Notes under the pieces: generated by a model
The model's input: only the letters and a program-made list of their open reading frames with translations
What the model was told of the DNA's origin: nothing
Databases searched by the model: none
Origin: Nanobdellota archaeon
GTDB taxonomy: Archaea > Nanobdellota > Nanobdellia > Pacearchaeales > GW2011-AR1
Reading direction: 5' to 3'
DNA: 48,283 nt
NCBI GenBank assembly: GCA_030648285.1
Contig: JAUSIC010000003.1
Span: 1 to 48,283, forward strand
In this document: one piece after another, positions 1,374-28,561 of the stretch
Layout of the letters: every line of letters begins with the position of its first letter
How positions within the stretch are numbered: position 1 is the stretch's first letter
Program-made: the position numbers and the translations under genes

Positions 1374-1826
1374 ATGAACAAGAAATTTTCAAAACATTGG
1401 AAGTCAAGCAGAAAACCAAGAAAACAAAGAAAGTACATAGCAAAAGCTCCGATTCATATAAAGAGAAAAATGCTTCATGTTCAGTTGTCAAAAGAATTAA
1501 GAAAAAAGTATGGAATAAGGAATATAACAATAAACAAAGGAGACACTGTAAAAGTCATGAAAGGGAAATTCAAGAAAAAACAAGGAAAAGTAACAGAAGT
1601 GAATACAAAAAGACTAAGAATATTTGTTGAAGGAGTTCAAGTAAGAAAACAGGATGGAAGCAAAGCAAATGTTTTCATAAGACCTGCGAACTTGCAAATT
1701 GTTGAATTAAATCTTGAGAAGAAAAGAAGCAAGATTGAAAGAATGAAAAAAGAAACCAAAGAAAAAGTAAAAGAAGAAAAAACAGAAAGCAAAGTTAAAG
1801 AAAAAATCACGGAGGAAAAGAAATAA
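1374..1826 (+). CDS. rpl24: 50S ribosomal protein uL24
   Basis: PRKQRKY..AP.H, KGDTVKVMKGKFK KOW motif; start moved to ATG 1374 (TAAAATG junction). Confidence 0.95.
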   Translation: MNKKFSKHWKSSRKPRKQRKYIAKAPIHIKRKMLHVQLSKELRKKYGIRNITINKGDTVKVMKGKFKKKQGKVTEVNTKRLRIFVEGVQVRKQDGSKANVFIRPANLQIVELNLEKKRSKIERMKKETKEKVKEEKTESKVKEKITEEKK

Positions 1827-1876
1827 TGACAGAACTAAAGTTCAGCACAAATAAAAATTCGGGAGAATTTTCATAA
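1826..1876 (+). mobile_element. Start-codon repeat element copy 1 (mini-ORF MTELKFSTNKNSGEFS*)
   Basis: TAATG overlaps at both ends; flanking 9-nt direct repeat ATAATGACA; 3' half matches copy 6a except 2 loop bases; hairpin AAAATTC-GGGA-GAATTTT. Mobility is inferred. Confidence 0.75.
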
Positions 1877-3246: not shown

Positions 3247-3303
3247 ATGTCAACTCCATTCCACAATTTCAAATTAAATAAAATGATGACAGCAAAATTG
3301 TAA
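3247..3303 (+). other. Bridging mini-ORF MSTPFHNFKLNKMMTAKL* between rps14 and rps8; possible degenerate element copy
   Basis: Open frame fills the whole gap; flanked by 9-nt direct repeat TAAAATGTC (3243-3251, 3301-3309); CCACAATTTCAAATT resembles core CCACAAATACAAAAT. Confidence 0.55.
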
Positions 3304-3304
3304 A

Positions 3305-3685
3305 ATGTCGCAAGATATTGTTTCGGACGCATTAAACATGATAAGAAATGCCAAAAGGGCAAGAAGAGATAGTGTGAAAATCAATAGAATATCAAATCTC
3401 TTAATCGAAGTTCTGAAAATAATGAAAGAGAAAGAAGCAATAAAGAAATACAAGATTGACAGCAAGGAAAAATCAATAGAAGTAACATTCGGAGATTTCA
3501 CAGAATGCAGAGCAATAAAGCCAAGATTCACTGCAGACAAAACTCAAATTGAAAAATACAGAAGAAGATATCTTCCTGCAAGAAACTTAGGAACAATAAT
3601 CATTTCAACAAATAAAGGATTAATGACTCACGAAGAGGCATTTGCAGAAGGAATTGGAGGAATCCTTGTTGCGTATTTTTATTAA
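3305..3685 (+). CDS. rps8: 30S ribosomal protein uS8
   Basis: D.VSDALNMIRNA, AIKPRF, YLPARNLG.IIISTNKGLMTH motifs. Confidence 0.97.
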   Translation: MSQDIVSDALNMIRNAKRARRDSVKINRISNLLIEVLKIMKEKEAIKKYKIDSKEKSIEVTFGDFTECRAIKPRFTADKTQIEKYRRRYLPARNLGTIIISTNKGLMTHEEAFAEGIGGILVAYFY

Positions 3686-3686
3686 A

Positions 3687-3944
3687 ATGAACGAAAAACC
3701 AAGAATAGAAAACAGAGTATCTGGATTAGGAAGAGCAGTAATATTTGGAGGAATTGCTATTCTTTATAGTAATCTTCTTTCTAATAATTTATTGGGGAAT
3801 AGTCTTAAAACTATTATGGATGCTGGATGTGCAATAGTAGCTACTGATGGTATCGGAGATTTAGTTACTGGACAAAATCATTATTTATCTTCAAGATTAA
3901 TTAAACATCTTAATGAAAGGAGAAATTTGAAATATTTAATATAA
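3687..3944 (+). CDS. Orphan small, probably membrane-associated protein (85 aa) inserted between rps8 and rpl6
   Basis: ATG 3687 one base after rps8 stop; stop one base before rpl6 ATG; Gly/Ala-rich hydrophobic segments; no family recognised. Confidence 0.7.
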   Translation: MNEKPRIENRVSGLGRAVIFGGIAILYSNLLSNNLLGNSLKTIMDAGCAIVATDGIGDLVTGQNHYLSSRLIKHLNERRNLKYLI

Positions 3945-3945
3945 C

Positions 3946-4488
3946 ATGAAAAAAGATTTATCGCAAACAATTGAAATTCCAGAAGGAGTGGAAGCGAACA
4001 TAGACGGAAGTTCAATCACTGTAAAGGGAAGCAAAGGAGAAAACAAAAGGACATTCAATGTCACAAATCTTTCTTTTGAGAAAAAAGGAAATAAAATAGT
4101 TGTTGGAAACAAAAAAGCAACAAAAAAAGACAAAAGAATGATGAACACAATTGCAGCACATGTCAAGAACATGATAAAAGGAGTTCAGGAAAAATTTGAA
4201 TACAAATTAAAAGTGTGCTTCAGCCATTTCCCAATCACAGTTGAATTAAAAGGAAATGAAGGAATAATAAAAAATTTCTTGGGAGAAAAAACACCAAGAA
4301 AAATGAAAATCAAAGAAGGTGCAGAAGTGAAAGTGGACAAAGATATAATCACAATAACCTCAACAGACAAGGAGATAGCAGGAAAAGTTGCAGCTGATTT
4401 TGAAAGAGCAACATGGATAAGAATGAGAGATAGAAGAATTTTCCAAGATGGCATTTTCATAACAAGTAAAGCAGGAGAAGATATCTGA
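3946..4488 (+). CDS. rpl6: 50S ribosomal protein uL6
   Basis: IEIPEGV, SHFPI, NFLGEK, RDRRIFQDGIFI motifs. Confidence 0.97.
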   Translation: MKKDLSQTIEIPEGVEANIDGSSITVKGSKGENKRTFNVTNLSFEKKGNKIVVGNKKATKKDKRMMNTIAAHVKNMIKGVQEKFEYKLKVCFSHFPITVELKGNEGIIKNFLGEKTPRKMKIKEGAEVKVDKDIITITSTDKEIAGKVAADFERATWIRMRDRRIFQDGIFITSKAGEDI

Positions 4489-5866: not shown

Positions 5867-5971
5867 ATGACAGAAATAGGAAATTTCACTGCAGACAAGA
5901 AGTCAGCCGTTCGTTCGTCAAAGCCGAGCGACAGCACAAATACAAAATCGGCATGGAGGTATTTTGCATAA
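5867..5971 (+). mobile_element. Start-codon repeat element copy 2 (mini-ORF MTEIGNFTADKKSAVRSSKPSDSTNTKSAWRYFA*)
   Basis: 5866-5942 identical (77 nt) to reverse complement of 28584-28660; 5940-5974 identical (35 nt) to 10126-10160; carries GGAGGT and ends in TAATG overlapping rps5. Mobility is inferred. Confidence 0.8.
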
Positions 5972-6732
5972 TGGCAGAAGAAAAAACAGAAGAACAAATC
6001 AGCCAGGAAATGCTGGAAAAAGAACTTGAAAAAGAAATAATAGAAAAACAAGTAGTAGAAAGAAGCAAAGAAGAAATGGAGAGGGATGACAAGATTGCTT
6101 CTTGGGTTCCAAAAACAAAACTTGGAAGAGAAGTAAAAGAAGGAAAAATCAAAAAAATAGATGAAATTCTTGATGCTAAGCAAAAAATCTTAGAAGAACA
6201 AATTGTTGAAAAATTGCTTAATCTAAAATCAGATTTAATTTCAATTGGGCAATCAAAAGGAAAATTCGGTGGAGGAAAAAGAAGAGCCTGGAGACAAACT
6301 CAAAGAAAAACAAAAGAAGGGAATGTTCCGACTTTCTCAACAATGGCTGTTGTAGGAGATGGAAATGGGCATGTAGGAGTAGGCATGGGAGAAGCAAAAG
6401 AAACTCTTCCTGCAAGAGACAAAGCAATAAGAAAAGCAAAAATAAATATTATAAAAATTATCAGAGGATGCTCAAGTTTTGATTGCAATTGTTCTGAACC
6501 TCACACAATTCCATTTCAAGTAGAAGGAAAATCAGGAAGTGTAAGAATAACCTTGATTCCAGCACCTCAAGGAACAGGATTAGTTATCGGAAATGAATTG
6601 AAAAAAGTATTAAAACTCGCAGGAATTAAAGATGTATATAGCAAGACATTTGGAAGCATTAGAACAACTTTTAATTTTGTTCAAGCTTGCATGGATGCCT
6701 TGAAGAAAACAAACCCAATTTATAGAAAATGA
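5971..6732 (+). CDS. rps5: 30S ribosomal protein uS5
   Basis: WVPKTKLG..VKEG, AVVGDGNGHVGVG, PAPQGTGL, LAGIKDV motifs; start set at 5971 because the MEVFCI prefix derives from the repeat. Confidence 0.96.
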   Translation: MAEEKTEEQISQEMLEKELEKEIIEKQVVERSKEEMERDDKIASWVPKTKLGREVKEGKIKKIDEILDAKQKILEEQIVEKLLNLKSDLISIGQSKGKFGGGKRRAWRQTQRKTKEGNVPTFSTMAVVGDGNGHVGVGMGEAKETLPARDKAIRKAKINIIKIIRGCSSFDCNCSEPHTIPFQVEGKSGSVRITLIPAPQGTGLVIGNELKKVLKLAGIKDVYSKTFGSIRTTFNFVQACMDALKKTNPIYRK

Positions 6733-7013
6733 AAAGTGCAACAGAGATTAAACAAGTAAGAAATTTAGAAGATTTAAGAGAAATACATGTAGATGATGCT
6801 GTTGAAGTTCCAACAATAGAAGCAAGAGGAATTGTTTATGGTTTTGATAAATTGTATGGATGGATGGACTTAATAGAAGATTGGGGTAATGGGTTATTAC
6901 AAGTGATGTATGTATTTAACAGAGATGAGATAATATTAAACAGCAGTACACTATTAAAAAAAGATGTTGAAAAATATGAAGCTAAATTAAGAGAAGTGGG
7001 GGTTATCAAATGA
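6729..7013 (+). CDS. Orphan acidic protein (94 aa) inserted between rps5 and rpl30
   Basis: ATGA overlaps with both neighbours; no family recognised. Confidence 0.72.
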   Translation: MKSATEIKQVRNLEDLREIHVDDAVEVPTIEARGIVYGFDKLYGWMDLIEDWGNGLLQVMYVFNRDEIILNSSTLLKKDVEKYEAKLREVGVIK

Positions 7014-7351
7014 TAGCAATAATAAGAATAACAGGGCAAATCAATCTTAGTGAGAACATAAAAGAAACTTTCCAAAGATTAAATCTAAAGAAAAAATATA
7101 CATGCATTGTTATTGAAGAAATGAATGATGTGCAAAAAGGAATGCTTAAAAAAATCAAAGACTTTGTTGCATACGGAGAATTAAACAAAGAAACTTATGA
7201 CAAGTTAGTTGAAAAAAGAGGACAAAAAGAAAAAAATATTTTCAGATTGCATCCTGCAAGAGGGGGAATCAATACAAAGAAAGCTTTTCCTAAAGGAGTT
7301 TTAGGAAATCACAAGCAAGAAATAAATAAATTAGTGGAGAGAATGCTCTAA
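7010..7351 (+). CDS. rpl30: 50S ribosomal protein uL30
   Basis: IAIIRI.G, GMLKKIKDFVAYGE, FRLHPARGG, INKLVERM motifs. Confidence 0.95.
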   Translation: MIAIIRITGQINLSENIKETFQRLNLKKKYTCIVIEEMNDVQKGMLKKIKDFVAYGELNKETYDKLVEKRGQKEKNIFRLHPARGGINTKKAFPKGVLGNHKQEINKLVERML

Positions 7352-7788
7352 TGATAAAAACACACAAACGAACAAAACAAAGCAGAAGGCACGGACAAGG
7401 AATGGGAAGTCATGGTAGAGGAGCAAGAAAAAAGGGAAAAGGAAAAGGACATCAAGGAGGAAAAGGAATGTCTGGAACAGGAAAAAGAGCAGGGCAAAAA
7501 GTAACATTAATGACTTCACTTTATGGGCATGGATATTTCGGAAAACAGGGAATAACAAGCAAAGGAACAGAAAGAGACAAGAGAGATAGAATAAACTTAA
7601 GAGATATTGAGAAACATCTTGACAAATATGGAAAAAAATCAGGAGACAAATGGGAAGTTGAATTAAAAGGATACAAGATTTTAGGAGAAGGAGAAGTAAC
7701 CAGTAAATTAATAATAAAGGCAAAAGAGGCTTCGAAATCAGCAATTGACAAAGTCAAAAGCGCTGGTGGAGAAATCATACTGAAATAA
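7351..7788 (+). CDS. rpl15: 50S ribosomal protein uL15
   Basis: HGRGARKKG.G.GH.GG.G..G, YFGKQG, KILGEG, ASKSA..KV..AGG motifs. Confidence 0.96.
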   Translation: MIKTHKRTKQSRRHGQGMGSHGRGARKKGKGKGHQGGKGMSGTGKRAGQKVTLMTSLYGHGYFGKQGITSKGTERDKRDRINLRDIEKHLDKYGKKSGDKWEVELKGYKILGEGEVTSKLIIKAKEASKSAIDKVKSAGGEIILK

Positions 7789-7794
7789 AATAAA

Positions 7795-9243
7795 ATGGTA
7801 GATTTGAAGAAAATTTTTGGATTAATTCCAGAAGTTAGTTCACCAGAAGAGAAAAAATTAAGCTTTAATGTAAAGCTCAAATGGACACTGATTGTTCTGG
7901 GTGCATTTTTTATTCTTGCAAACATTTCTCTTTTTGGATTATCAAACAATGCTCTTGAAAGATTCAAATATTTAGCTATTATTTTAGGAACTGATTTTGG
8001 TAGCATTATTTCCTTAGGTATTGGTCCAATAGTAATGGCTTCTGTAATTCTGCAGTTATTAACAGGAGTTGGAATAATAAAAATAGATTTAACAACAGAA
8101 GAAGGGAAAAAATTCTTCCAAGGCTTGCAGAAACTCTTGGTTTTCGCTTTCATAATTTTTGAAGCATTGGTTTATGTATTGATGAACGGGCTTCAGGCAA
8201 TGCCTGGTTTAGAAGTAATAGTAATTGTGCAATTAATCTTAGGAGGCATTGCAATTTTCTACATGGATGATATAATGACTAAATGGGGATTTGGTTCGGG
8301 AGTTAGCTTGTTCATTGCTGCAGGAGTTGCTTGGAGATTATTTGCTACATTATTCCAGTTCATAGATGCACAAGGGAAAAATTGCCTGCTCAGTTTTGGC
8401 AGTACAATGTGTTCTGGAAAAGTGTTTGTCTTAATCCAGTCAATAAGCGTTCTCAGAGACAGCACTGAATTTGCAGTTGCATTAGGAGCAATTCTCGTAA
8501 CTATCGGAATTTTCCTTTTGGTTGTTTTTGTGCAATCTCTAAAAGTTGAAGTTCCTTTGTCTTATGGAAGATTAAGAGGATACGCTGTCAAATGGCCACT
8601 TGCATTTTTATACGCGAGCAACATGCCTGTTATCTTAACAGCAGCATTAATTGCAAATATTCAGTTGTTTGGAGGAATGATTGATAACGCTGCTTCTGCT
8701 TGTGTCCAAGGAGCATGCACTGGTGCTGCAAAAGTTGCATCCTTTTTCGGTGGTTTCTTAGGACATTTCAATCCAAGCGGAGAAGCAGTATCTGGATTAG
8801 CATTTTGGATGGGAAACAGAAATCTTCTTGAATTAATCTTGAGAGGAGCATTTATTCCGGCTTATATTCTTCAAGGATTGACACACATATTATTTTTTGT
8901 TGTCTTGGCAACAGTATTTTCTGTCTTTTGGGTAAAAACTTCACAAATGGATTCAAAAGCTCAAGCACACAAAATTGCTGCATCTGGATTGCAAGTGGCA
9001 GGTTTCAGGCAGGATGAGAGAATATTGGAAAATATCCTTGACAGATACATAATGCCTTTGACAATAATGGGCGGAATTGCGATAGGATTATTAGCTGCAC
9101 TTACAGATGTTTTAGGTGCATTAGTTTCAGGAACAGCAATTCTTTTAGGAGTAATGATTATGTACCAATTCTATCAAAACATTGCACAACAGCATCAGGT
9201 TGATATGAACCCTGCATTCAGAAAGTTTATGGGTGCTGCATAG
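7795..9243 (+). CDS. secY: Preprotein translocase subunit SecY
   Basis: LGIGPIVMAS.ILQLL, KWGFGSGVSLFIAAG, YASNMPVIL, GFRQD motifs; multiple TM helices. Confidence 0.98.
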   Translation: MVDLKKIFGLIPEVSSPEEKKLSFNVKLKWTLIVLGAFFILANISLFGLSNNALERFKYLAIILGTDFGSIISLGIGPIVMASVILQLLTGVGIIKIDLTTEEGKKFFQGLQKLLVFAFIIFEALVYVLMNGLQAMPGLEVIVIVQLILGGIAIFYMDDIMTKWGFGSGVSLFIAAGVAWRLFATLFQFIDAQGKNCLLSFGSTMCSGKVFVLIQSISVLRDSTEFAVALGAILVTIGIFLLVVFVQSLKVEVPLSYGRLRGYAVKWPLAFLYASNMPVILTAALIANIQLFGGMIDNAASACVQGACTGAAKVASFFGGFLGHFNPSGEAVSGLAFWMGNRNLLELILRGAFIPAYILQGLTHILFFVVLATVFSVFWVKTSQMDSKAQAHKIAASGLQVAGFRQDERILENILDRYIMPLTIMGGIAIGLLAALTDVLGALVSGTAILLGVMIMYQFYQNIAQQHQVDMNPAFRKFMGAA

Positions 9244-9273
9244 TTTTAAAAGACGATTTTAACTTAAACAAAA

Positions 9274-9882
9274 ATGGTAGACGAACAAGATAAAATGACA
9301 GGCATTATCCCAAATAAGGGTTCAATAAGCCATGAAGACAAGAAAGGAAGCATGCTGCCAATTGTAATTATCATGTTTATCTCTTTATTTATTGCATTTG
9401 CATGGGATAAATTTCCTGTTATAAAAAATTCTGTTCATGCTGTTTTAAATCCAACTGCAGGGGCATTATTAAAATTGAATATTCCTGGAGGATTAGAAAT
9501 TGGAATGATTATTATTGTTTTCCTGATTACCTTAATATCAACTTTAGTGCAGAAATTTGCTACAGACCAGAATGCATTAAGAGAATTAAAGAAAGAACAG
9601 AAAATTCTTAATGAAGAAATGAAAAAATATAAAGAACATCCTGAAAAAGTTGCAGAGCTTTCAAAAAAGCAAATGGAATTTATTCCAAAAACAATGAAAT
9701 TGACAAGCCGTTCAATGCTTTACACAGGTGTTCCATTTATTTTATTCTTTAGGTGGTTTAGCGATGTTTTTACTGCAATGGGAAATCCTAAATTCTTTGG
9801 CATAATGGGATGGTTCTTGTTCTACTTCATATTCACGATTGTGTTCTCTGCTATATTGAAGAAAGTAATGAAGGTTGTTTAA
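9274..9882 (+). CDS. DUF106 / EMC3-TMCO1 (Oxa1 superfamily) membrane insertase-like protein
   Basis: TM helix, coiled coil (LRELKKEQK...), P.ILFFRW and W...Y motifs; usual position downstream of secY. Confidence 0.88.
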   Translation: MVDEQDKMTGIIPNKGSISHEDKKGSMLPIVIIMFISLFIAFAWDKFPVIKNSVHAVLNPTAGALLKLNIPGGLEIGMIIIVFLITLISTLVQKFATDQNALRELKKEQKILNEEMKKYKEHPEKVAELSKKQMEFIPKTMKLTSRSMLYTGVPFILFFRWFSDVFTAMGNPKFFGIMGWFLFYFIFTIVFSAILKKVMKVV

Positions 9883-10021
9883 CTACTCCGAAACTAACTT
9901 TGTCAAGTTTCTTCGAAAGAAATAATTAAGGTGTATAACTTTAACGCCGAGTTTGACTAAAACGATTGTCATCAACTTAAATATCTACAAAAGGCTTCAA
10001 TTATTCTATTAACCCTCTCTA

Positions 10022-10036
10022 GGGTGGGCGGGTGGG
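10022..10036 (+). other. Canonical G-quadruplex motif GGGTGGGCGGGTGGG
   Basis: Four G3 tracts with single-nucleotide loops in an intergenic region; overlaps hairpin ACCCT-CTCT-AGGGT (10012-10025). Confidence 0.75.
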
Positions 10037-10050
10037 ATTAAGACAATAAA

Positions 10051-10058
10051 TTTAAAAG
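10051..10058 (+). promoter_or_regulatory. Putative TATA box for the element copy 3 / pfdA transcript
   Basis: TTTAAAAG 21 nt before ATG 10080, same spacing as other promoters in the window. Confidence 0.6.
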
Positions 10059-10079
10059 CCAAAATATAATTCATTTTAT

Positions 10080-10157
10080 ATGAAAAATAGGAAATTTTCC
10101 AATGTCCTCAGCATGAAACCTGCAGATACAAAATCGGCATGGAGGTATTTTGCATAA
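10080..10157 (+). mobile_element. Start-codon repeat element copy 3 (mini-ORF MKNRKFSNVLSMKPADTKSAWRYFA*)
   Basis: Shares AAATAGGAAATTT, CTGCAGA and the 35-nt 3' end with copy 2; terminal inverted repeat TATGAAAAATA / TATTTTGCATA (10 of 11); TAATG overlap with pfdA. Mobility is inferred. Confidence 0.8.
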
Positions 10158-10558
10158 TGGAAGAACCTAATGAACAAGAAAAACAAGAACTAATGATGAA
10201 ACTAGGATTTTTCGAACAGCAAATAAGACAAATTCAGCAACAAATTCAGGCAATTGAACAAGGAATTGTTGAAATGACTTCATTAAATTCAGGACTTGAA
10301 GAATTACAAGGCAAAAAAGATGCAGAAATTCTTGCTCCAATTGGAAGAGGAATTTATGCTAAAGCAAAGTTACTTTCAGAAGAATTGATTGTCAATGTTG
10401 GAAGCAATAATCTTGTGACAAAAGGAATTTCTGAAACAAGAAAACTCATTGAAAGCCAGATTCAAAAACTAGAAGAAATCAAAGTTGAAATGAATAATAA
10501 TCTTGAGAATTTAGGAAAAGAAATTGAAAGTGTAATGGGTGAAAAGCACGAACATTAA
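10157..10558 (+). CDS. pfdA: Prefoldin subunit alpha
   Basis: Two coiled coils around EILAPIGRGIY...LIVNVGSN beta-hairpins; start set at 10157. Confidence 0.93.
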   Translation: MEEPNEQEKQELMMKLGFFEQQIRQIQQQIQAIEQGIVEMTSLNSGLEELQGKKDAEILAPIGRGIYAKAKLLSEELIVNVGSNNLVTKGISETRKLIESQIQKLEEIKVEMNNNLENLGKEIESVMGEKHEH

Positions 10559-11361
10559 CTAACTTTTTTCACAAACCTATCATAACTCAATGCCCCGAAT
10601 TCAGTAACTATCTTTTTAATATATTTTTTATCCACAAACTCAAACGCGGGATTTTTTATTTTGATATGGTTAGGCGCTTTATCCCAGATTTCATTTAATT
10701 CTCTTTGTTCAAAGGGAATTCTCTTTTTTGTGAATTTCCAAGAATCAGCAATAATGTAAACAGGAGTTTTGTTTATTTTTGCCAATTGAGCAATAACCCC
10801 GCTTCCAACCTTGTTTATTATTCCTTCTCTTAACAAAGCATCTGAACCTAAAAATATTTTATTTGCTTTTCTCATTCCTTGCTTTCCCGATAATGCAATT
10901 CCAATAGCAGAATCAACAAACATTGTAACTTTTATGTTTGCATTTTTCAATTGCTTTGCTGTTTTTCTTCCCTGATACAAAGGGCGAGTTTCTGTATTGT
11001 AAACTTGAAATTTTTTTCCTTTTCTTTTAGCATAAATTAAAGCATTGATAACATTTGTCGAATGGCAATGAGTAAAAATAATATCATCTGTTTTTATTAA
11101 TTTTAAAATAACTTTGTTTATTTCTGTTTGACTATAATCAAAATGCTTTTTTATATCTGAAGAAGGAAAATCTTCTGCTAAATTTACAACTTTTTCGAGC
11201 ATTGGTTCTGTTTCTCTTAAAGAAATAAGTTTTCTCTTTGATTCTTTTGTTGGAATTAAAGAATAAGCATACAATGCTGCTTTTGCAATATTTCTTGCTC
11301 CTTGAATTTTAACTTCTTTTATATCTCTCGCAATTTTGTTGAAAACTTGCTGTTTTGACAT
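10555..11361 (-). CDS. Ribose-1,5-bisphosphate isomerase / eIF2B-alpha-like family protein
   Basis: IQGA..IA, THCHS, ETRPLYQG, GSD, NKVGS, NPAFE motifs. Confidence 0.88.
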   Translation of the reverse strand: MSKQQVFNKIARDIKEVKIQGARNIAKAALYAYSLIPTKESKRKLISLRETEPMLEKVVNLAEDFPSSDIKKHFDYSQTEINKVILKLIKTDDIIFTHCHSTNVINALIYAKRKGKKFQVYNTETRPLYQGRKTAKQLKNANIKVTMFVDSAIGIALSGKQGMRKANKIFLGSDALLREGIINKVGSGVIAQLAKINKTPVYIIADSWKFTKKRIPFEQRELNEIWDKAPNHIKIKNPAFEFVDKKYIKKIVTEFGALSYDRFVKKVS

Positions 11362-11416
11362 CTCTTTTTGATAAGAAGTTCTAAATGTTTAAAAAACCTC
11401 TTCTTCTTTATACTAT

Positions 11417-12274
11417 ATGCTTGAGTCGTTAGTGAATCCAAAAAGAGTTGAGAAAGGTTCTTGGAAAATGTTCTTTATAGGTTTACTTTATGGTTCATTA
11501 TCTCTTCTTTTAGTTCATTGGTTTTTTTCAAGAGATGCTGTTTTATCAAAATTTTCAGGAATGATTGTTGTTCTTTTTTGTGTGATGTTTTCTCTTCCTT
11601 TCATATATTATGTTATTAAAAAAGAAGAAAAACAGGATGAACAAATTGAAGGAGTGTTGCATGTCTGGAAAGCCCATAGCGATGCTATTTTTGCATTCAT
11701 GTGGCTGTTTTTAGGTTTTTTAATCGCATTTTCATTCTGGTATATATTACTGCAAAATACAAGTCTGTTCAATGCTCAACTGGAAACTTATTGCATGATT
11801 AACAGCCCAGGAGGAATTGAAAATTGTGTTGCAAAATATTCAGATATACAAGGAATGATGTCAGGAGCTTCTACAAGTGTAGTTAATTTTTTATCAATAA
11901 TAGAAAATAATATCTATGTTATGATTTTTACTCTTTTGTTATCATTAATCTTTGGGGCAGGTGCAATTTTTGTTTTGGCTTGGAATGCAAGTGTTATTGC
12001 TTCTGCTATTGGGGTATTCACAAGATATCACCTGGCTCAGGTTCCAATAGGACTCTTAAGATACATGATACACGGAGTTCCTGAAATTGCTGCTTACTTT
12101 GTAACAGCTCTTGCAGGAGGAATCTTGGGAACAGGAATAATAAGGCATGGAATAAAGGACAAAAGGTTCTTGCATATAATTGAGAATGTCACAATTCTGC
12201 TGTTTATTTCTTTGGCTCTTTTGGTTATTGCAGGGTTGATGGAAGTCTATTTAACACCATTGTTCTTCAAATAA
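11417..12274 (+). CDS. SpoIIM-like (DUF95) integral membrane protein
   Basis: I.ENN, WNASVI, HGVPEI.AY, AG.MEVYLTP motifs; multiple TM helices. Confidence 0.85.
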   Translation: MLESLVNPKRVEKGSWKMFFIGLLYGSLSLLLVHWFFSRDAVLSKFSGMIVVLFCVMFSLPFIYYVIKKEEKQDEQIEGVLHVWKAHSDAIFAFMWLFLGFLIAFSFWYILLQNTSLFNAQLETYCMINSPGGIENCVAKYSDIQGMMSGASTSVVNFLSIIENNIYVMIFTLLLSLIFGAGAIFVLAWNASVIASAIGVFTRYHLAQVPIGLLRYMIHGVPEIAAYFVTALAGGILGTGIIRHGIKDKRFLHIIENVTILLFISLALLVIAGLMEVYLTPLFFK

Positions 12275-12313
12275 ACAATATTTAAAAATGGTTTATTGCT
12301 GATTAAATTACAT

Positions 12314-15100
12314 ATGGAAGAAATAAAAGAGAATGTTTTAACTCCTGATTTTTCTGGAGTATCAGATGAACTAGCAGACAGAAAGAAGAAACTTCTTGGT
12401 TTTTTGAAGAAAAAAGGACAATGGATTTATTATGCAATACTTGCATTCATAATTTTTATTGCAACTTTTGTAAGAACAAGAAATATCTCTAAATTAAAAG
12501 ACATAACAACAGGAACTTGGACATTAGGACCTGATTTAGACCCTTTCTTATTCCTGAGATGGGCAAAATATATAGCCCAGCATGGAAGCTTGTTTATTTT
12601 GGACAAGTTAAGGTCTGTTCCTTTGGCAGATATTTGTGTTGGTATACAGTGTAATCCTGTAAATACTTCAGGAGACATGAAACTACTATCTTACATGATA
12701 GTTTGGGTCTGGAAATTTTTATCTATTTTCAAAGAAGCAAGTGTAACTTATGCTGCTATAATCTTTCCTGTAATCATGTTCGTTTTGACAATAATCGCAT
12801 TTTTCCTTTTTGCAAGAAAAGTTTTCTACAAGATGGATGTAAAATCAAGAAATATCATTGCCTTGATATCAACTGCATTTTTCGCTGTAGTTCCTTCTTT
12901 ACTACCAAGAACAATCGCAGGAATACCTGAAAAAGAATCTGCTGCGTTCTTCTTCATTTTTCTCAGCTTTTACTTTTTCCTTGAAGCATTCACTTCTGAA
13001 AAATTAAGAGGAAAACTCATCTTTGGAATTCTTTCAGGAATAACTACAGGACTGCTTGCGCTCATATGGGGAGGAGCAGGGTTTGTCTTTCTCACTATAC
13101 CTGCTGCAGTTTTGTTCGCTTTTCTTCTTGGAAAAATTGATACTCATAAATTTTATTCTTATGGGCTATGGGTTTTAAGCTTTACATTAATCATGATTCC
13201 CTCTTCAACAAGATATGCCCTTGAAAATTTATTGACTTCAACTTCAACAGCTGTAACTTATCTATTATTTTTAGTTCTTGGAGTTGACATCCTCATATTC
13301 AAAAAGAAAATCTTTAAACTCAATGAAAAGATAAAAATAAAACTTCCACAACAGATTATTTCTCTGATTATTTCTTTTGTTTTAATAGCAATTTTAGGAA
13401 GCCTTGCTTTTGGAATATCTTTTATTCCGCATCAGGTTCAGGATGTCATAAGCCAGACAATACATCCATTAGACCAGACAAGATTCAGTGTTACTGTAGC
13501 AGAAAATAAACAGCCTTCTTTTGTCGGCGACTGGAAAGACAGTTTCGGGCCTGTTATATGGAATATTCCTTTATTTTTCTGGCTCTTTTTTATTGGTTCT
13601 ATTTTCTTATTTGCTAATCTTATAGAAAAATTAGAAAAGAAAGAAAGAATAATTTTGACAATAGCTTATACTATCTTCTTAGCAGGATTAATATTCAGCA
13701 AATATTCTCCTTCAGGAGTATTAAACGGAGAAAGCACCACGAGTTTAATTGTTTATTTTGGAGGAGTGCTGGTTTTCCTTATTAGTTTTGGATATTTCTA
13801 CATTAAGAGATATAAAGAAAGCAAATTATCTGCATTTAAGGAATTTGAATTTTCATATTTGATTTATTTTATTGTATTAACCATGGCAATAATGGCAGCA
13901 AGAGGAGCAGTCAGACTTATAATGGTTTTAGGAGCAATAAGTCCGCTTGCTATTGGCTTTTTAGTTTACAAAACTTCAAAAGACTATTTCAAGCAAAAAG
14001 ACAATGTTAAAAAATTCGCAATAGCAGTAATTGCATTAATCATAATAATCGCTGCTGTTTTTACTCTATGGACATATTATAGGGCTGACAGAGCTACTGG
14101 AGAGAATTTTGCTCCTGGCCCATACCAATGGCAATGGCAAAAAGCAATGGCTTGGGTGAGAGAAAATACATCAGTCAATGCTGTATTTGCTCATTGGTGG
14201 GATTATGGTTATTGGGTTCAAAGCATTGGAGAGAGAGCAACAATCGTAGATGGAGGTAATAGTGTAGGATATTGGAATCATTTAATGGGAAGGTATGTGC
14301 TTGCAGGAAATAATGAAAAAGATTCTTTAGATTTTCTTTATGCACATAATGCAACGCATTTACTCATAGACTCTTCTGAAATTGGAAAATATACTGCATT
14401 TTCCAGCATTGGCTCTGATGGAGATTATGATAAAATGTCTTGGATTCCTGAAATCCTGATGGATGAAAAACAAATAGTAGAGAAAAATAATGAAACCATG
14501 TATGTTTATATAATCCCCGGAGGAGGTACTGCAACAGACGAAGATATTCTCTGGAGTGAAAATGGAAAAGATATATTGCTTCCTGGAAGAAGCTCTTACC
14601 TAATTGGAGTAATCTTAAGCAAAAGTTCAGATAATAGGATATCCCAGCCTACTGGTGTTTTTGTATATAATAATCAACAATACAGGATTCCTTTCAGATA
14701 TGTTTATATCAAGGGAAATCTCAACGATTTCAATTCAGGATTAGATGCAGGAATATTCCTATACCCTAGGATAGAAACTACTTCAACAGGAATAAAGCAA
14801 AATGGGATAGGAGCAGGGTTTTATTTAAGCCCAAGAACAATTCACTCCAGCATTGCCCAGTTATATTTATTTGAGCAAAAATCAGATTATTTCAAAATAG
14901 CACATGTGGAAAGCAATGCTATTGTGAGTGATTTAAAAAGTAATGGATTTTATGAGGGAGAATTTTTATATTACCAAGGATTCCAAGGACCAATAAAGAT
15001 ATGGGCAATAACATATCCTTCAGATATAAAATTAAAGCAAGAATATTTAAATATAAATTATCCGAAAGAATTTCAAACAACAGATCCTGCTAGATACTAA
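12314..15100 (+). CDS. aglB: Oligosaccharyltransferase AglB (STT3 family)
   Basis: DLDP, RT.AG..EKE, TVAEN, WWDYG and DGG motifs; multi-TM N-terminal domain; ATG 12314 preferred over TTG 12296. Confidence 0.96.
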   Translation: MEEIKENVLTPDFSGVSDELADRKKKLLGFLKKKGQWIYYAILAFIIFIATFVRTRNISKLKDITTGTWTLGPDLDPFLFLRWAKYIAQHGSLFILDKLRSVPLADICVGIQCNPVNTSGDMKLLSYMIVWVWKFLSIFKEASVTYAAIIFPVIMFVLTIIAFFLFARKVFYKMDVKSRNIIALISTAFFAVVPSLLPRTIAGIPEKESAAFFFIFLSFYFFLEAFTSEKLRGKLIFGILSGITTGLLALIWGGAGFVFLTIPAAVLFAFLLGKIDTHKFYSYGLWVLSFTLIMIPSSTRYALENLLTSTSTAVTYLLFLVLGVDILIFKKKIFKLNEKIKIKLPQQIISLIISFVLIAILGSLAFGISFIPHQVQDVISQTIHPLDQTRFSVTVAENKQPSFVGDWKDSFGPVIWNIPLFFWLFFIGSIFLFANLIEKLEKKERIILTIAYTIFLAGLIFSKYSPSGVLNGESTTSLIVYFGGVLVFLISFGYFYIKRYKESKLSAFKEFEFSYLIYFIVLTMAIMAARGAVRLIMVLGAISPLAIGFLVYKTSKDYFKQKDNVKKFAIAVIALIIIIAAVFTLWTYYRADRATGENFAPGPYQWQWQKAMAWVRENTSVNAVFAHWWDYGYWVQSIGERATIVDGGNSVGYWNHLMGRYVLAGNNEKDSLDFLYAHNATHLLIDSSEIGKYTAFSSIGSDGDYDKMSWIPEILMDEKQIVEKNNETMYVYIIPGGGTATDEDILWSENGKDILLPGRSSYLIGVILSKSSDNRISQPTGVFVYNNQQYRIPFRYVYIKGNLNDFNSGLDAGIFLYPRIETTSTGIKQNGIGAGFYLSPRTIHSSIAQLYLFEQKSDYFKIAHVESNAIVSDLKSNGFYEGEFLYYQGFQGPIKIWAITYPSDIKLKQEYLNINYPKEFQTTDPARY

Positions 15101-15101
15101 A

Positions 15102-15158
15102 ATGAGCAAACAGGAAATTTGCCACAAATACAAAATAGATAAGAGGTATTTTGCATAA
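15102..15158 (+). mobile_element. Start-codon repeat element copy 4 (mini-ORF MSKQEICHKYKIDKRYFA*)
   Basis: Core motifs AGGAAATTT, CACAAATACAAAAT and GAGGTATTTTGCATAATG; begins 1 nt after aglB stop and ends in TAATG overlap. Mobility is inferred. Confidence 0.8.
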
Positions 15159-16150
15159 TGGAAATTATACTGGTAATTCCCCTTCTTCTAAGCTTTTTAA
15201 TGGCTTTATTTTTAATGCCGTTTTGGATTAAAAAAGCTAAAGAGATTGGGCTTGTATGGGAAGATATGAACAAGCCAGAACATCCAAAGAATGTTGCTGG
15301 TTCTGGAGGGGTTGCAGTATTTTTAGCATTTATACTAGGAGTTTTAACATATATTGCCATAAAGACATTTTACTTCAAATCAAAAGATAATCTAATAGAA
15401 ATTTTTGCTTCTTTGAGTGTTATCTTGGTAATTTCATTTATTGGAATTTTAGATGATTTGTTAGGATGGAGAAAAGGAGGATTATCTGCAAAATCAAGAC
15501 TGGCTTTGTTATTGTTTGCATCTATTCCTTTGATTGTAATAAATGCAGGAGAATCAAATATATTTGGAAATGTAGAATTAGGATTGATATATCCTCTGGT
15601 TTTTATCCCTCTCGGAATAATTGGAGCATCAGCAACCTTTAATTTCTTAGCAGGTTATAATGGATTGGAAACAAGCCAGGGAATATTGATATTATCCAGT
15701 CTTTCATTAATAACATTTACAACAGGAGAAAAATGGCTTTCAATAATTATTTTATGCATGGTTGCTTCTTTAATTCCTTTTTATCTTTTTAATAAATATC
15801 CTGCAAAAGTTTTTCCAGGGAATATAATTACCTATTCTGTAGGAGGTTTAATTGCAATGATAGCTATACTTGGAAATTTGGAAAAAATTGCTATCTTCTT
15901 TTTCATCCCCTATATCTTAGAAACAATCCTGAAAGTTAGAGGAAAATTAAAAAAACAAAGTTTTGCAAGGGTAAATCCTGACGGAAGTTTGGAAGTGCCT
16001 TATGAAAAAATTTATGGGTTGGAACATTTGGCAATATTTATTTTAAAAAAGGTAAAAAAGAAGGTTTATGAGAAAGATGTTGTTTATCTCATAAATGGGT
16101 TTCAGATATTTATAATAATATTAGGAATGATATTATTCTGGAGACCTTAA
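15158..16150 (+). CDS. MraY/GPT (AglH-like) polyprenyl-phosphate HexNAc-1-phosphate transferase
   Basis: DMNKP, GILDD, NFLAGYNGLE, NKYPAKVFPG motifs; adjacent to aglB. Confidence 0.9.
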   Translation: MEIILVIPLLLSFLMALFLMPFWIKKAKEIGLVWEDMNKPEHPKNVAGSGGVAVFLAFILGVLTYIAIKTFYFKSKDNLIEIFASLSVILVISFIGILDDLLGWRKGGLSAKSRLALLLFASIPLIVINAGESNIFGNVELGLIYPLVFIPLGIIGASATFNFLAGYNGLETSQGILILSSLSLITFTTGEKWLSIIILCMVASLIPFYLFNKYPAKVFPGNIITYSVGGLIAMIAILGNLEKIAIFFFIPYILETILKVRGKLKKQSFARVNPDGSLEVPYEKIYGLEHLAIFILKKVKKKVYEKDVVYLINGFQIFIIILGMILFWRP

Positions 16151-16152
16151 TA

Positions 16153-16356
16153 ATGAGCAAACAAGAAATTAAATTCGCGACCTCACTAATATGGATTAAA
16201 CGTGAAATCGCTCACCACAAATACAAAATCGACAGGAGTGAATGGAAACGAACAGGAAGTTCATTTCACGCTCTTTTTCAAAAAGTGAATGACAAGAAAG
16301 AAACATTATTTTTAGGAAAAAATAACGAAGAAAAATATCGGAGGTATTTTGCATAA
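16153..16356 (+). mobile_element. Start-codon repeat element copy 5, expanded form (67-codon ORF MSKQEI...HKYKID...RYFA*)
   Basis: Same three core blocks as copy 4 separated by hairpin-rich inserts; TAATGA at both ends. Mobility is inferred. Confidence 0.78.
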
Positions 16357-17297
16357 TGAAAATTAGAAAACTTTTGCCTATAATAGGAATTTTAATCTTT
16401 CTGTACATTTTAATAAGATTAGATATAAGAAAAGTCTTATTAGAAATCAGCCAGGCAAAAGTAAATTTTCTGTTAATTGCTGTATTATTCATTTTCATTT
16501 CCTTTTTAACAGAAACATTAAAATGGTTTTCAATAGCAAGAGTGCAAAAAACTAATATTCCTTTTTTTAAGGCAGTAAAAGTAAATCTAATCAGTTCTTT
16601 TTATGGATTCATAACTCCTTCAAAAGTGGGGGGGGTAATACGTGCAAAATATTTGAAAGAATACAACAACAATGTCGGAAAAGGAGTTGGAAATTTTATA
16701 TTGGACAAGGTTTTGGATGTATGTTCCTTAGTGTTTTTAGCAATATTATTTTCTTTTGTGTTTAGAGAGTTTCTTCCAATTAATTTTTTCTATTACTCAA
16801 TTGCCCTGCTTTCATTGATGATAATATTTCTATTCATCTTTTTTGATATGAGGAAGAGCAGATTTTTTCTAAAGATAGTCTATAAAAGATTCATTCCAAA
16901 GAGATGGAAAGAAAGAGCAAGAAAAGAATTTTATTCTTTCTATGAAGATATGCCTAAAAAAAGATATTTTTTCCTATTTTTTCTCTTAAACATTCTTAAT
17001 TGGATTGTCTTATATTCTATAAGCTTTTTTATTGGAAAATCTATTGGAATAAACCTCTCTTTCTTTTATTTCTTAGCAATTCTTCCAATAGCTACTTTAG
17101 TTGCACAGATACCAATAACAATCTCTGGATTAGGTACAAGAGAGGCAATCTTAATCACTTTATTCGGATTAGTGGGAATTGATAAAACAAAAGTATTTTC
17201 AATGTCCATGATAAATCTGTTCATAGGAGCTGTTATTCCTTCTGCAGTAGGTTGGATTTTAAGTCTGAAAAACAATAAAAATTATAAACAAACCTAA
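16356..17297 (+). CDS. Lysylphosphatidylglycerol synthase TM-domain / flippase-like membrane protein (UPF0104)
   Basis: KW, TPSKVGG..RA, DKVLD, PITISGLGTRE motifs. Confidence 0.88.
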   Translation: MKIRKLLPIIGILIFLYILIRLDIRKVLLEISQAKVNFLLIAVLFIFISFLTETLKWFSIARVQKTNIPFFKAVKVNLISSFYGFITPSKVGGVIRAKYLKEYNNNVGKGVGNFILDKVLDVCSLVFLAILFSFVFREFLPINFFYYSIALLSLMIIFLFIFFDMRKSRFFLKIVYKRFIPKRWKERARKEFYSFYEDMPKKRYFFLFFLLNILNWIVLYSISFFIGKSIGINLSFFYFLAILPIATLVAQIPITISGLGTREAILITLFGLVGIDKTKVFSMSMINLFIGAVIPSAVGWILSLKNNKNYKQT

Positions 17298-22676: not shown

Positions 22677-24116
22677 ATGAAACTAGTTTTAATTGAACCT
22701 AACATCCAAGGATACGCACTAATGCCCACAATGTCTCTGGCAATACTAAAATCATACATAAATGAGAAAAGCAGGCATAATGCAAGAGTAATAGACTTGA
22801 TATTTCATAAAAAAAATTGGAAAGAATATTTAAGCGAACAGATAAAAGAATTAAAACCTGATTTAATAGGAATGTCTGTTTTAAGCTTCAATTATCTAGC
22901 TGCTTTGGAAATTGCCAAGTTCATAAAGGAAAAATTTGGAACAAAGATAATATTCGGGGGCGTGCACGTAATTCTTTCTCCAGAAGAGGTTATAGAAAAT
23001 AAAGATGTGGATATAATCTGCACAGGAGAAGGAGAAGAAGTATTAAAGAATCTTTTGGATAAAAAACTAAATTGCAAAGATGTGAAAGGGATATGGTATA
23101 AAAAAGAAGAAAAAATAATCAAAAATCAAAAAATAAAACTGATAGAAAACTTGGACAGTATTCCGTTTCCAGATTGGAGTGATTTTGACTTAAAAAAATA
23201 TTTTTTGATAAGCGGAAACAATCTTCCGATAATGGGTTCTCGCGGATGTCCTTACCAATGCACGTACTGCAGTAATCATGCATTAAGAGAAAATTTGATT
23301 GGAAAATATGTAAGATTCAGAAGCGTGGACAACATAATAGAAGAAATAGAATTGAGAATAAAGCAATACCACAACAAGGGATTCAAATATCTATTTTTTT
23401 ATGATGATACTTTCATAATGTACAGAGATTTTGTCTTAGAATTTTGCAGGAAATTCAAAGAAAAAGGGTTTCATAAAAAAATAAAATGGAACGTGAATGT
23501 AAGGGCAAATCTCGTTACAGATGAAATAATAAAAGCAATGAAAGATGCAGGATGCTATGAAGTAAGAATGGGAGTTGAAGCAGGAAATGATTACATAAGA
23601 AATGAAATCTATAAGAGAAATATGTCTGAAAAGCAAATTTTTGATGCTATTAAAATAATTAAAAAATATGGGTTGCAACTAAGACTGCAGTTCATAATTG
23701 GCGCTCCTTATGAGAACCTTGATATGATGAATGAAAGCTTTGAAATGGCAAAAAAATCAGAAGCAGATTATGTCTTGTTTCCTGTCTTAATTCCTCTTCC
23801 TTCGACAAAAATGAAGGAACTTTGCGAAGAAGAAGGAGTCATTGAAAGAAAGAAATTCAAAAGTTCGCATGAAATGTTCACTAATCCTGTTGTAAGAACA
23901 AAATTTGTGTCAAGAAAAGAAATCAAAAATTTTGTCAATAAAATAAGAATGTACCAGGTTAAAAAATATTTTTTAGAAGGATTAAAGTTAAGAGGCTTAA
24001 TCTTTGTAAAAGATTCCTTGATTTTTTTTGTCTATTACAAGAGAAAATATGATTTGGAAATAGATAACATTTTCCGTTTTACAATAAATAAATACAAGCT
24101 TGAGGATTTAAAATGA
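22677..24116 (+). CDS. B12-binding radical SAM protein
   Basis: GGVH, GEGE, SRGCPYQCTYC, DDTF, MGVEAG motifs. Confidence 0.93.
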   Translation: MKLVLIEPNIQGYALMPTMSLAILKSYINEKSRHNARVIDLIFHKKNWKEYLSEQIKELKPDLIGMSVLSFNYLAALEIAKFIKEKFGTKIIFGGVHVILSPEEVIENKDVDIICTGEGEEVLKNLLDKKLNCKDVKGIWYKKEEKIIKNQKIKLIENLDSIPFPDWSDFDLKKYFLISGNNLPIMGSRGCPYQCTYCSNHALRENLIGKYVRFRSVDNIIEEIELRIKQYHNKGFKYLFFYDDTFIMYRDFVLEFCRKFKEKGFHKKIKWNVNVRANLVTDEIIKAMKDAGCYEVRMGVEAGNDYIRNEIYKRNMSEKQIFDAIKIIKKYGLQLRLQFIIGAPYENLDMMNESFEMAKKSEADYVLFPVLIPLPSTKMKELCEEEGVIERKKFKSSHEMFTNPVVRTKFVSRKEIKNFVNKIRMYQVKKYFLEGLKLRGLIFVKDSLIFFVYYKRKYDLEIDNIFRFTINKYKLEDLK

Positions 24117-28511: not shown

Positions 28512-28561
28512 TACATAAAATCTCCTATTTTATGTTTGTGGCAAATCTCCTGTTTGCTCAT
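28511..28561 (-). mobile_element. Start-codon repeat element copy 6b (mini-ORF MSKQEICHKHKIGDFM*)
   Basis: 5' part nearly identical to copy 4; perfect 9-bp hairpin ACATAAAAT-AGGAG-ATTTTATGT; TAATG at both ends. Mobility is inferred. Confidence 0.8.

Follow-up and report, generated by a model that had tools for sequence, protein, structure and literature searches.

Why would an archaeon keep short reading frames open in front of its genes and let the peptides that they encode change freely? The question is raised by a contig of 48,283 nucleotides from a Nanobdellota archaeon (JAUSIC010000003.1 of GenBank assembly GCA_030648285.1). This whole contig is the window of our study, and it belongs to a genome assembly of 621,814 bp in 25 contigs with a G+C content of 31.6% and a completeness of 85%. 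By its gene content the host is archaeal as well (S4e, S3Ae, Nre, a PolD small-subunit-like protein, proteasome alpha). Seven short open reading frames (ORFs) stand directly before genes in the window. A sequence-only reading of this DNA had proposed that all seven are in frame and free of stops up to a TAATG, and that selection acts on the delivery of ribosomes to this TAATG and not on a leader peptide. Our results indicate that the frames are probably copies of a mobile mini-cistron, comparable to the interspersed repetitive units of mycobacteria (MIRUs), which is kept open for the hand-over of ribosomes to the host gene.

Tracing the frames confirmed the seven copies, with lengths of 51, 105, 78, 57, 204, 99 and 51 nt. 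Every one of these mini-ORFs begins with ATG, is free of internal stops and closes with a TAA that shares its last A with the next ATG. The same DNA is read differently from copy to copy, as had been noticed before. AGGAAATTT is read as G-N-F in copy 2 (MTEIGNF), as R-K-F in copy 3 (MKNRKF) and as Q-E-I in copy 4 (MSKQEI), and CACAAATACAAAAT is read as (S)TNTK in copy 2 and as HKYK in copies 4 and 5. The third phase of the shared central motif, AQIQN, is found at C16:50655 (loci outside the window are given as contig and position) and is the dominant phase in another genus, which bears out the claim that the motif is read in all three frames. The repeated motifs are more frequent in the window than expected. 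The exact 16-mer GGTATTTTGCATAATG occurs four times, where a search allowing up to three mismatches has an expectation of 1.11 and reached four in one of 100 shuffles, and CACAAATACAAAAT with up to two mismatches occurs nine times against 1.9 expected. A caveat on this excess is that of the 11 window matches to AGGAAATTT only four lie within copies.

The copies belong to a repeat family that extends throughout the genome. Motif and profile searches yielded 46 candidates with a recognisable head ATG, one of which is dubious (C11:14331), and four extra copies stand outside this list (C7(-):1097, C2:17405-17513, one on C9 and C15:48783). A covariance model built on 25 copies gives 39 matches. All 46 listed copies directly precede an ATG-initiated open frame and have the same orientation as the gene. 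The core of the element measures 51-60 nt and consists, from 5' to 3', of ATG(A), a short left hairpin (e.g. GAAAT-AGGAA-ATTTC), CACAAATACAAAAT, a hypervariable spacer of 7 nt, GGAGG and TATTTTGCATA-ATG. ATACAAAAT and ATTTTGCAT pair as a right hairpin with the spacer and GGAGG in its loop, and the end of the element can be written as ...GGAG(G)-N11-TAATG. Subfamilies are distinguished by small indels. Some copies additionally contain nested inserts of 21-60 nt, each of them hairpin-forming, which bring the total to as much as 204 nt; all of these large inserts are multiples of three. Tandem pairs are found at copies 6 and 7 of the window, at C15:21549/21599 and on the related contigs L037 and L038. 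The genes behind the copies include those of eight ribosomal proteins (8 of about 44, as a raw count), the RuBisCO large chain, proteasome alpha, SecD/F, prefoldin and an Rpb11-like RNA polymerase subunit.

Evidence for a constraint on the frame comes from the collected copies, in which the head ATG was assigned by homology and not by frame. It is in frame with the TAA of the TAATG in 39 of the 45 listed copies of the genome, and on 17 related metagenome contigs the same is true of 24 of 25 copies, which are also open. Of five loci in other genera, four hold copies with open ATG..TAATG frames, and among 17 covariance-model matches in a genome of another genus (G197) 14 are intact relays, one is fused and two are not intact. 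Pooling the genome and metagenome copies gives 70 copies, 66 of them unique, and 59 that are unique and in frame. Only one of these 59 has an internal stop triplet in the relay frame, that is, the frame from head ATG to TAATG, compared with 50 and 41 in the other two frames; the numbers of distinct stop contexts by frame are 1, 41 and 29. The single relay-frame stop (C16:23813) is an artefact of definition, a TAA two bases before the ATG. With shuffled interiors 9.9 open copies would be expected, where 58 of 59 are observed. For the seven window copies, the interior shuffles give open-frame probabilities of 0.26, 0.12, 0.16, 0.21, 0.002, 0.11 and 0.26, with a product of 10^-7.2. The agreement in frame had previously been put at (1/3)^7 for independent copies. 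That it goes beyond chance stands, and the figure itself does not, since the copies are related by descent and it overstates their independence. Even allowing for shared descent, the depletion of stops in these sequences is far beyond chance.

The frame is preserved while its phase changes. Of the unique sequences, 44 read the central motif in phase 1, 15 read it in phase 2 and 5 in phase 0. Where the 5' half is shifted in frame, the length of the 3' half makes up for it in all seven architecture classes with a non-default 3' phase, and 21 of 27 distinct length architectures are in frame. The copy at C12(-):37680 first looked broken; it reads through a partial second copy as one frame of 30 codons that ends in TAATG. 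Given the three phases, the compensating 3' lengths and a 7-nt spacer that is hypervariable also at the amino-acid level, the peptide is not conserved, in agreement with the earlier proposal. The genome-wide census did not turn up many copies that are out of frame or stopped. Selection on ribosome delivery to the TAATG, and not on a leader peptide, therefore gains support from the frame and stop statistics, and delivery itself is what we infer from them. As far as sequence analysis goes, the earlier interpretation is supported. It had not seen that the copies belong to a mobile repeat with filled and empty sites, that initiation in the host is almost always leaderless or coupled, and that MIRUs provide a precedent.

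A reason why openness matters may be found in the way this host initiates translation. In a set of 660 crude genes, 129, 84 and 48 TATA-like hexamers begin at positions -29, -28 and -27 relative to the first ATG, which suggests that leaderless mRNAs are the rule in this genome. The commonest spacings to the next ORF are +1 (TAA-A-ATG, 52 cases) and -4 (ATGA, 45 cases). Within the 60 nt that precede each of 655 genes GGAGG turned up just 36 times, with a peak at -17 to -14, which is the position of GGAGG in the element; otherwise there is no Shine-Dalgarno enrichment. The 3' end of the 16S rRNA nevertheless keeps CCTCC, and all tail subtypes of the element retain GGAG(G) 15-16 nt before the main ATG of the host gene. 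The head ATG of the element is placed like the start of an ordinary gene: TATA-like hexamers peak at -29 from it (15 hexamer starts at -32 to -27), and in 22 of 46 copies its distance from the end of the upstream gene is between -7 and +8 nt. In none of the 46 copies is there a TTTAWA or TTATAW within 45 nt of the main ATG. This geometry suggests that the head ATG holds the normal place of the start codon and that the host gene has been displaced 51-204 nt downstream. With initiation almost exclusively at 5'-terminal AUGs or by stop/start coupling, the displaced gene could be reached only by translating through the insert, because both models of coupling, reinitiation and unfolding at the next start, need it. 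This would explain why openness matters.

From these observations we propose the following mechanism. A non-autonomous repeat with two hairpins would insert exactly at a start codon and in the orientation of the gene, so that the original ATG of the host gene turns into the first codon of the mini-cistron. This ATG would either follow a TATA box at a distance of 29 nt, implying a leaderless mRNA, or come 0-3 nt after the stop of an upstream gene, and the stop of the mini-cistron would overlap a rebuilt ATG for the host gene. The only way for a ribosome to get to the displaced gene would then be to translate the insert and to restart at the TAATG, be it by termination-reinitiation, by melting of the hairpin adjacent to the start, or by both. 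Copies with a frame shift or a stop would shut off the gene that follows and disappear. The expected result is a frame that stays open while its peptide drifts, even into other frames. Uninterrupted translation would also avoid transcriptional polarity. The repeat family, its exact position at the ATG, the filled and empty sites, the frame and stop statistics, the promoter geometry and the covariation of the hairpins can be read from the DNA; translation of the mini-ORFs, restart at the TAATG and restart as the reason for selection are the steps that the mechanism would add to them.

Filled and empty sites among close relatives point to mobility. An exact-pattern search identified the element on 17 metagenome contigs, which are syntenic with contigs of our genome and share 73-96% identity with them in longer alignments, mostly 78-93%. 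The site of copy 1 is empty in L032 and in a contig of run X2, that of copy 3 is empty in contigs of X2 and X3 (10070 is joined to 10172 with 18 other letters), that of copy 4 is empty in L023 (TATTAAATGGAAATT) and that of copy 5 is empty in L023 and L024. For copy 2, between L18 and S5, a contig of run X8 shows an empty junction (TATAATG), and L033 is filled with different nested inserts. There are also contigs that skip 5887-5931; their sides are short, so that they possibly derive from other copies. Conversely, three window positions are empty in our genome and filled elsewhere, namely 3013 (L031), 4961 (L032, L033) and 17310 (L023, L024). Alignments of filled and empty junctions put the insert exactly at the ATG, and the filled allele at 17310 retains the TATA-to-ATG spacing for its head ATG. 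In total 23 of the 25 metagenome copies could be mapped. Seven of them fall on four sites that are filled in our genome, and at least nine distinct sites of our genome are cleanly empty. A contig of another run has a long copy before SecY, a site without a copy in our genome. Duplication at the insertion site is limited to ATG/AATG.

The taxonomic distribution of the element is narrow. An exact-pattern scan was negative for all 40 relatives searched and for the stretches of a species-representative collection, and had suggested an element confined to one genus. This was dropped after the covariance model matched 10 of 95 other genomes of the same taxonomic family, with 1 to 17 matches per genome. 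The model had no match in 45 genomes of eight other families of the order. Among the genomes searched, the element is confined to one family of small-genome archaea. Two genera have a copy before the same gene (MGKR..QARGKGSSTYRV), of 51 and 48 nt and both open, which would amount to long-term maintenance. The dominant subfamily in G197 reads the central motif as AQIQN, which is the rare phase in our genome, so each of the three phases is used by a successful lineage. At one locus of G197 (L098, G197:C3:610543-610865) the TAATG is lost and the copy reads in frame into the downstream ORF; here the element sequence has apparently become an N-terminal extension.

Both hairpins are maintained through compensatory changes, and they may act in the DNA, for mobility, or in the RNA. 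With RNAalifold the right hairpin has six pairs, three of them with compensatory double changes. The left hairpin is formed by at least nine different stem sequences at the same place (GAAAT/ATTTC, GCAAA/TTTGC, GAAC/GTTC, GAAAA/TTTTC, GAAAC/GTTTC, GACG/CGTC, GGAA/TTCC, GAGA/TCTC and CTGAAAAT/ATTTTCAG), and its mean stem of 4.8 bp compares with 3.2 bp in shuffles. A search of the whole window against Rfam 15 gave no match at or above the gathering score. In the region 15050-16420 two matches at chance level (E about 1) were seen, neither of which overlaps a copy.

Several observations weigh against a mobile, ribosome-passing mini-cistron. Seven recognised copies in the genome are not intact relays. 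Three of them (C2:19300, C6:12067 and C7(-):4119) form one paralogous lineage with a common promoter and gene family, a stop at codon 4 and a frame shift; in this lineage an extra ATG opens a frame of seven codons that ends in TAATG. Two are out of frame (C16:27207 and C16:54270), one has lost its head and has an in-frame TAG (C7(-):1097), and one is decayed with no gene behind it (C15:48783). On the related contigs, the copy of L027 is shifted, and its head frame stops 8 nt beyond the main ATG. As the genes behind C2:19300, C6:12067, C7(-):4119, C16:27207 and C16:54270 are still open, an open relay is not absolutely required, and GGAG(G) could permit independent initiation. The sample itself may favour intact copies, because the list was built from conserved heads and tails and decayed copies are therefore under-sampled; two of the four extra copies were recognised by chance only. 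Two missed copies were found through a genome-wide census of -1 overlaps, which is too noisy for any other purpose, since internal Met codons are counted. The 59 unique in-frame copies are not independent, as they share descent, and their counts overstate the number of independent events. By our estimate they go back to a few dozen independent changes that created stops and to about eight independent shifts of the 5' frame, of which three or four were compensated.

Mobility and structure have weak points too. Terminal inverted repeats were absent from three regions in a repeat search, which found only the internal arms of the right hairpin. A longer target duplication was not supported either: the identity between heads and gene starts is not above that of permuted pairs (permutation p = 0.089), with C25:10133 as an exception at 11 of 12. 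The Y1_Tnp family (PF01797) had no match in our genome and five other carriers, OrfB_IS605 (PF01385) had none in our genome and four other carriers, and no DDE_Tnp_1 gene was found in our genome; the carrier genomes in these transposase searches are 85-95% complete. One sub-threshold match of 20 bits to Cas12f1-like_TNB (PF07282) lies in a frame of 75 aa. Without a transposase, terminal inverted repeats or a longer duplication, mobility is deduced from presence and absence, and recombination or gene conversion between gene starts could give the same pattern. The folding energy of the copies is no better than that of shuffles (z-scores of -0.5 to -0.8), so that covariation is the argument for the hairpins. 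The lack of terminal inverted repeats in the three regions searched sets the element apart from a classical miniature inverted-repeat transposable element.

Other explanations of the open frames have to be weighed against this one. The element might be a domesticated, beneficial translation module that brings GGAGG, as the only site of the Shine-Dalgarno type, and a relay ORF to genes that require high or coordinated expression, with the hairpins acting in the mRNA on its stability or on start-codon access. This is possible and is not exclusive of a mobile mini-cistron. It would account for the GGAG(G) in all tail subtypes of a genome otherwise without Shine-Dalgarno enrichment whose 16S rRNA keeps its CCTCC, for the many housekeeping genes among the carriers, for the copy retained before the same ribosomal-type gene in two genera and for the compensatory changes in both hairpins. 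We nevertheless find it unlikely. Turnover between congeners is rapid, with at least nine sites filled in relatives and empty here and three window sites empty there, and the genes function either way; the copy number per genome swings from none to 39 covariance-model matches among genera; the carriers have unrelated functions; and there is a decayed copy that no gene follows. The conserved blocks that flank a hypervariable loop, the two covarying hairpins, the palindromic right arms and the position upstream of starts could also suggest a cis-regulatory 5' leader common to the genes, an element of RNA or DNA to which the regulator of a regulon binds and in which the open frame is incidental. 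Such a leader gives no reason to avoid stops in one frame (1 versus 50 and 41 of 59) or to compensate indels in frame, and it would have to tolerate 45-150 nt inserts between half-sites. We judge it quite improbable, as the downstream genes have no common function, presence and absence differ between close relatives and Rfam has no match.

The mini-ORFs might instead encode a family of functional micropeptides of 17-70 aa upstream of many genes. ATG, open frame and stop are retained, a C-terminal (R)YFA is common among the products, and a few longer versions have been annotated by gene callers as hypothetical proteins. It is hard, however, to reconcile a functional peptide with the same DNA being read in three phases in different subfamilies, with spacer codons that vary freely and with inserts of 7-49 codons, and the common C-terminus is explained by the conserved DNA from GGAGG to TAATG. 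The products of 34 and 67 aa have no Pfam match, and for the 67-aa product of copy 5 just six matches, the query included, were found among 5.8 billion proteins. We give little credence to this explanation, and even less to an internal promoter cassette, in which the A-rich central motif would serve as the TATA box of a leaderless host mRNA. The centre of AAATACAAAAT does lie about 28 nt before the main ATG, which is the distance of the promoters in this genome. The recognisable TATA boxes, however, are 29 nt before the head ATG and not within 45 nt of any main ATG, the filled allele at 17310 keeps the promoter distance for the head ATG, and the constraint on the frame would be left unexplained. 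Some further candidates were dropped. A regulatory leader peptide or attenuation uORF (upstream ORF) was rejected since there is no conserved peptide and there are no diagnostic codons, with three phases and a hypervariable spacer. Inspection by eye spoke against a C/D-box sRNA (small RNA), a riboswitch and a programmed frameshift at the TAATG: C/D boxes are missing, the main ATG is the start in empty alleles, and the extension is not seen in orthologues.

In the window, the copies of the proposed mini-cistron stand before unrelated genes: those of S4e, S5, a prefoldin subunit, a family-4 glycosyltransferase, an LPG_synthase_TM protein and a PMT_2 glycosyltransferase. Copy 1 (1826-1876, plus strand, 51 nt) encodes MTELKFSTNKNSGEFS; it overlaps its neighbours at both ends, its ATG with the TAA of an upstream ORF (1353-1826) and its TAA with the ATG of the S4e gene (1876-2517). 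Copy 2 (5867-5971, plus strand, 105 nt) begins behind an upstream ORF that ends at 5865 and precedes the S5 gene with its ATG at 5971. On the same strand it has a left hairpin of GAAAT (5873-5877) and ATTTC (5883-5887), a right hairpin of ATACAAAAT (5940-5948) and ATTTTGCAT (5961-5969), and GGAGG at 5955-5959. An insert of 45 nt (5887-5931, plus strand), which is G+C-rich, hairpin-forming and shared with copy 6, is in frame, and stop triplets are absent from all three of its frames. Copy 3 (10080-10157, plus strand, 78 nt) lies before a prefoldin-type gene (ATG at 10157) and has a TATA-like TTTAAA at 10051-10056 on the plus strand, 29 nt upstream of its ATG.

Copy 4 (15102-15158, plus strand, 57 nt), encoding MSKQEICHKYKIDKRYFA, starts one base past the stop of an STT3/AglB-like gene, and its end overlaps the ATG of the glycosyltransferase-4 gene (15158-16150); the arms of its right hairpin are at 15128-15137 and 15147-15156 on the plus strand. 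Copy 5 (16153-16356, plus strand, 204 nt) is a copy of the same type as copy 4 with three in-frame, hairpin-forming inserts of about 45, 60 and 45 nt, and its TAATG supplies the ATG of the LPG_synthase_TM-type gene (16356-17297). In L023 and L024, where this site is empty, the gene has no ATG at the aligned place (TAA AAA AAA ATA AGG/AAA AAA TTT TTG CC...). Copy 5 may have provided its gene with a canonical start; alternatively, ATA or TTG may serve as the start in the relatives. The remaining two copies form the tandem pair on the minus strand. Copy 6 (28561-28659, 99 nt) ends in a TAATG that provides the ATG of copy 7 (28511-28561, 51 nt), which has a perfect 9-bp right hairpin (28513-28521 and 28527-28535, minus strand) and a TAA that overlaps the ATG of the PMT_2-type glycosyltransferase gene (26907-28511, minus strand).

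Some side observations concern individual copies and their neighbourhoods. Many copies have a spacer of the type ..CATGGAGG.. with an ATG in the frame of the host gene (MEVFCIM...), 18 nt before the main ATG. ORF finders then lengthen the gene by six codons, as with S5 as 5953-6732. Mis-annotated starts are a likely result, and gene callers will set the start wrongly at several copies. In the most diverged copy, C25:10074-10135, the head (ATGGTTGAAACAGG...) agrees with the start of its own host gene in 11 of the first 12 bases after the ATG. This is seen in no other copy, and the possibilities include an old copy, a source copy and the duplication of a gene start. At C12:10160-10223 a copy lies 6 nt past the 3' end of an apparent tRNA gene (GGGTTCGAATCCCGATCGGCGCA) and before a SecD/SecF-type gene, and the next SecD/SecF-type gene has a copy as well. 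The RuBisCO large-chain gene at C6:13592-14884, with both Pfam domains, stands behind a copy with a hairpin insert. On the minus strand of C9, at about 23250-23370, a degenerate copy forms an ORF of 123 nt that ends in ATGA (a -4 overlap) and not in TAATG. It has a TTTAAA 29 nt before its ATG, and its 60-nt hairpin insert is read in the second frame, different from all other copies. The ribosomal-protein cluster of the window also differs from that of related populations. Contigs of X2 and X3 are without 276 nt at 6731-7008, a 94-aa ORF between S5 and L30; they exchange 283 nt at 3685-3969 for 28 other letters and skip 58 nt at 3252-3311. These differences (at 6729-7013, 3642-3944 and 3252-3311) indicate that the cluster has extra small ORFs or segments here which are absent in the relatives.

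The closest known counterparts of the element are the MIRUs. As summarised from Supply et al. 1997 in PMC12548453 and PMC3184786, these are mobile, insert at start codons and have an internal ORF that is coupled (-4) to the gene; there are about 40-50 copies of 40-100 bp, sites can be filled or empty, and both tetranucleotide direct repeats and internal inverted repeats are present. Going by these summaries, the element shares with MIRUs that it is a short repeat with tens of copies per genome (46 listed plus four, with a core of 51-60 nt), that it lies co-oriented at gene junctions and start codons, and that there are filled and empty sites, tandem copies, short direct repeats and internal inverted repeats. 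It also shares a small ORF whose ends overlap the neighbouring stop and start (TAATG in 39 of 45 copies, one ATGA, and 22 of 46 near an upstream gene end). Unlike MIRUs, it is found in an archaeal host with a genome of 0.6 Mb, its overlap is TAATG (-1) and not ATGA (-4), and it is A+T-rich, with two short hairpins and GGAGG in a genome otherwise without such sites. The likeness is one of features, and a relationship in sequence is not expected. Subfamilies that read the same DNA in three frames do not appear in these summaries of MIRUs. Because of the archaeal host, the -1 overlap and the presumably unrelated, A+T-rich sequence, we do not file it as a MIRU by descent. It would be a member of a MIRU-like class by function, with coupled translation of the downstream gene as the presumed common trait.

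Translational coupling itself has been studied for pairs of genes. In the work of 2019 and 2023 cited in PMC12548453, coupling is described for -1 (TAATG) and -4 (ATGA) overlaps and weakens with distance; the same article gives reinitiation and unfolding of structure at the next start as models, and mentions that transcriptional polarity in archaea is attributed to FttA. Judged by that account, coupled gene pairs share the overlaps of the element and the presumed route of the ribosome from mini-ORF to gene. They consist of two real protein genes and are immobile, whereas the upstream partner here is a repeat with a free peptide. Delivery uORFs and the engineered bicistronic design, as presented in PMC12548453, are single-locus or man-made, whereas the element would be a self-propagating natural family with about 50 copies in one genome. 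A literature search, supplements apart, gave no description of such an element in archaea.

Two further groups of palindromic repeats are informative. Palindrome-associated elements derived from IS200/IS605, and the REP/RAYT (repetitive extragenic palindrome and its associated transposase) systems, have subterminal hairpins, a strand-specific orientation and apparently precise presence and absence without long target duplications. The element is like them in all of these features, with subterminal hairpins that are structurally conserved, and in a short fixed (A)ATG at the left flank and the right end. It is unlike them in that no Y1 or TnpB-type gene was found in our genome or in four or five other carriers, and in its much more compact geometry. 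Rickettsia palindromic elements (RPEs) insert in frame inside genes. Like RPEs, the element is a palindromic repeat that would survive in a gene-dense genome by keeping frames open, and the N-terminal fusion at L098 is a further likeness. Unlike RPEs, which lie inside genes and become part of the protein, it is a separate cistron before the gene. RPEs have an entry in a table of PMC3184786.

What does this mean for the archaea that carry the element? It may be seen as the archaeal counterpart of the MIRU principle, which was previously actinobacterial. The principle that a coupled mini-cistron can survive in gene-dense DNA would thus be extended to archaea with genomes of 0.6 Mb. The MIRU host is said to have many leaderless mRNAs, judging from the title of Shell et al. 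2015, and leaderless initiation as the rule in the carrier archaea suggests convergent evolution under the same constraint. We further considered, as a rather doubtful proposal, that the element is moved by machinery not yet recognised that homes on start codons, and that it is the main source of genes that are Shine-Dalgarno-led and relay-translated and of new N-terminal extensions. Candidate movers would be a single-strand enzyme that recognises hairpins and is encoded off the chromosome, or a route through RNA and cDNA. If this were true, the element would be a driver of the evolution of translation initiation and not a passenger. For practical purposes, the filled and empty sites can be used as strain markers, and archaeal hosts could be used to try out the element as a ready-made bicistronic expression cassette. 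It also offers a natural experiment on the requirements for passing a ribosome along an mRNA. All that dozens of copies have kept is an ATG, an open frame of 15 to 70 codons in any phase, GGAG and a stop that overlaps the next ATG, so that translation as such can be told apart from its peptide product more cleanly than with single uORFs.

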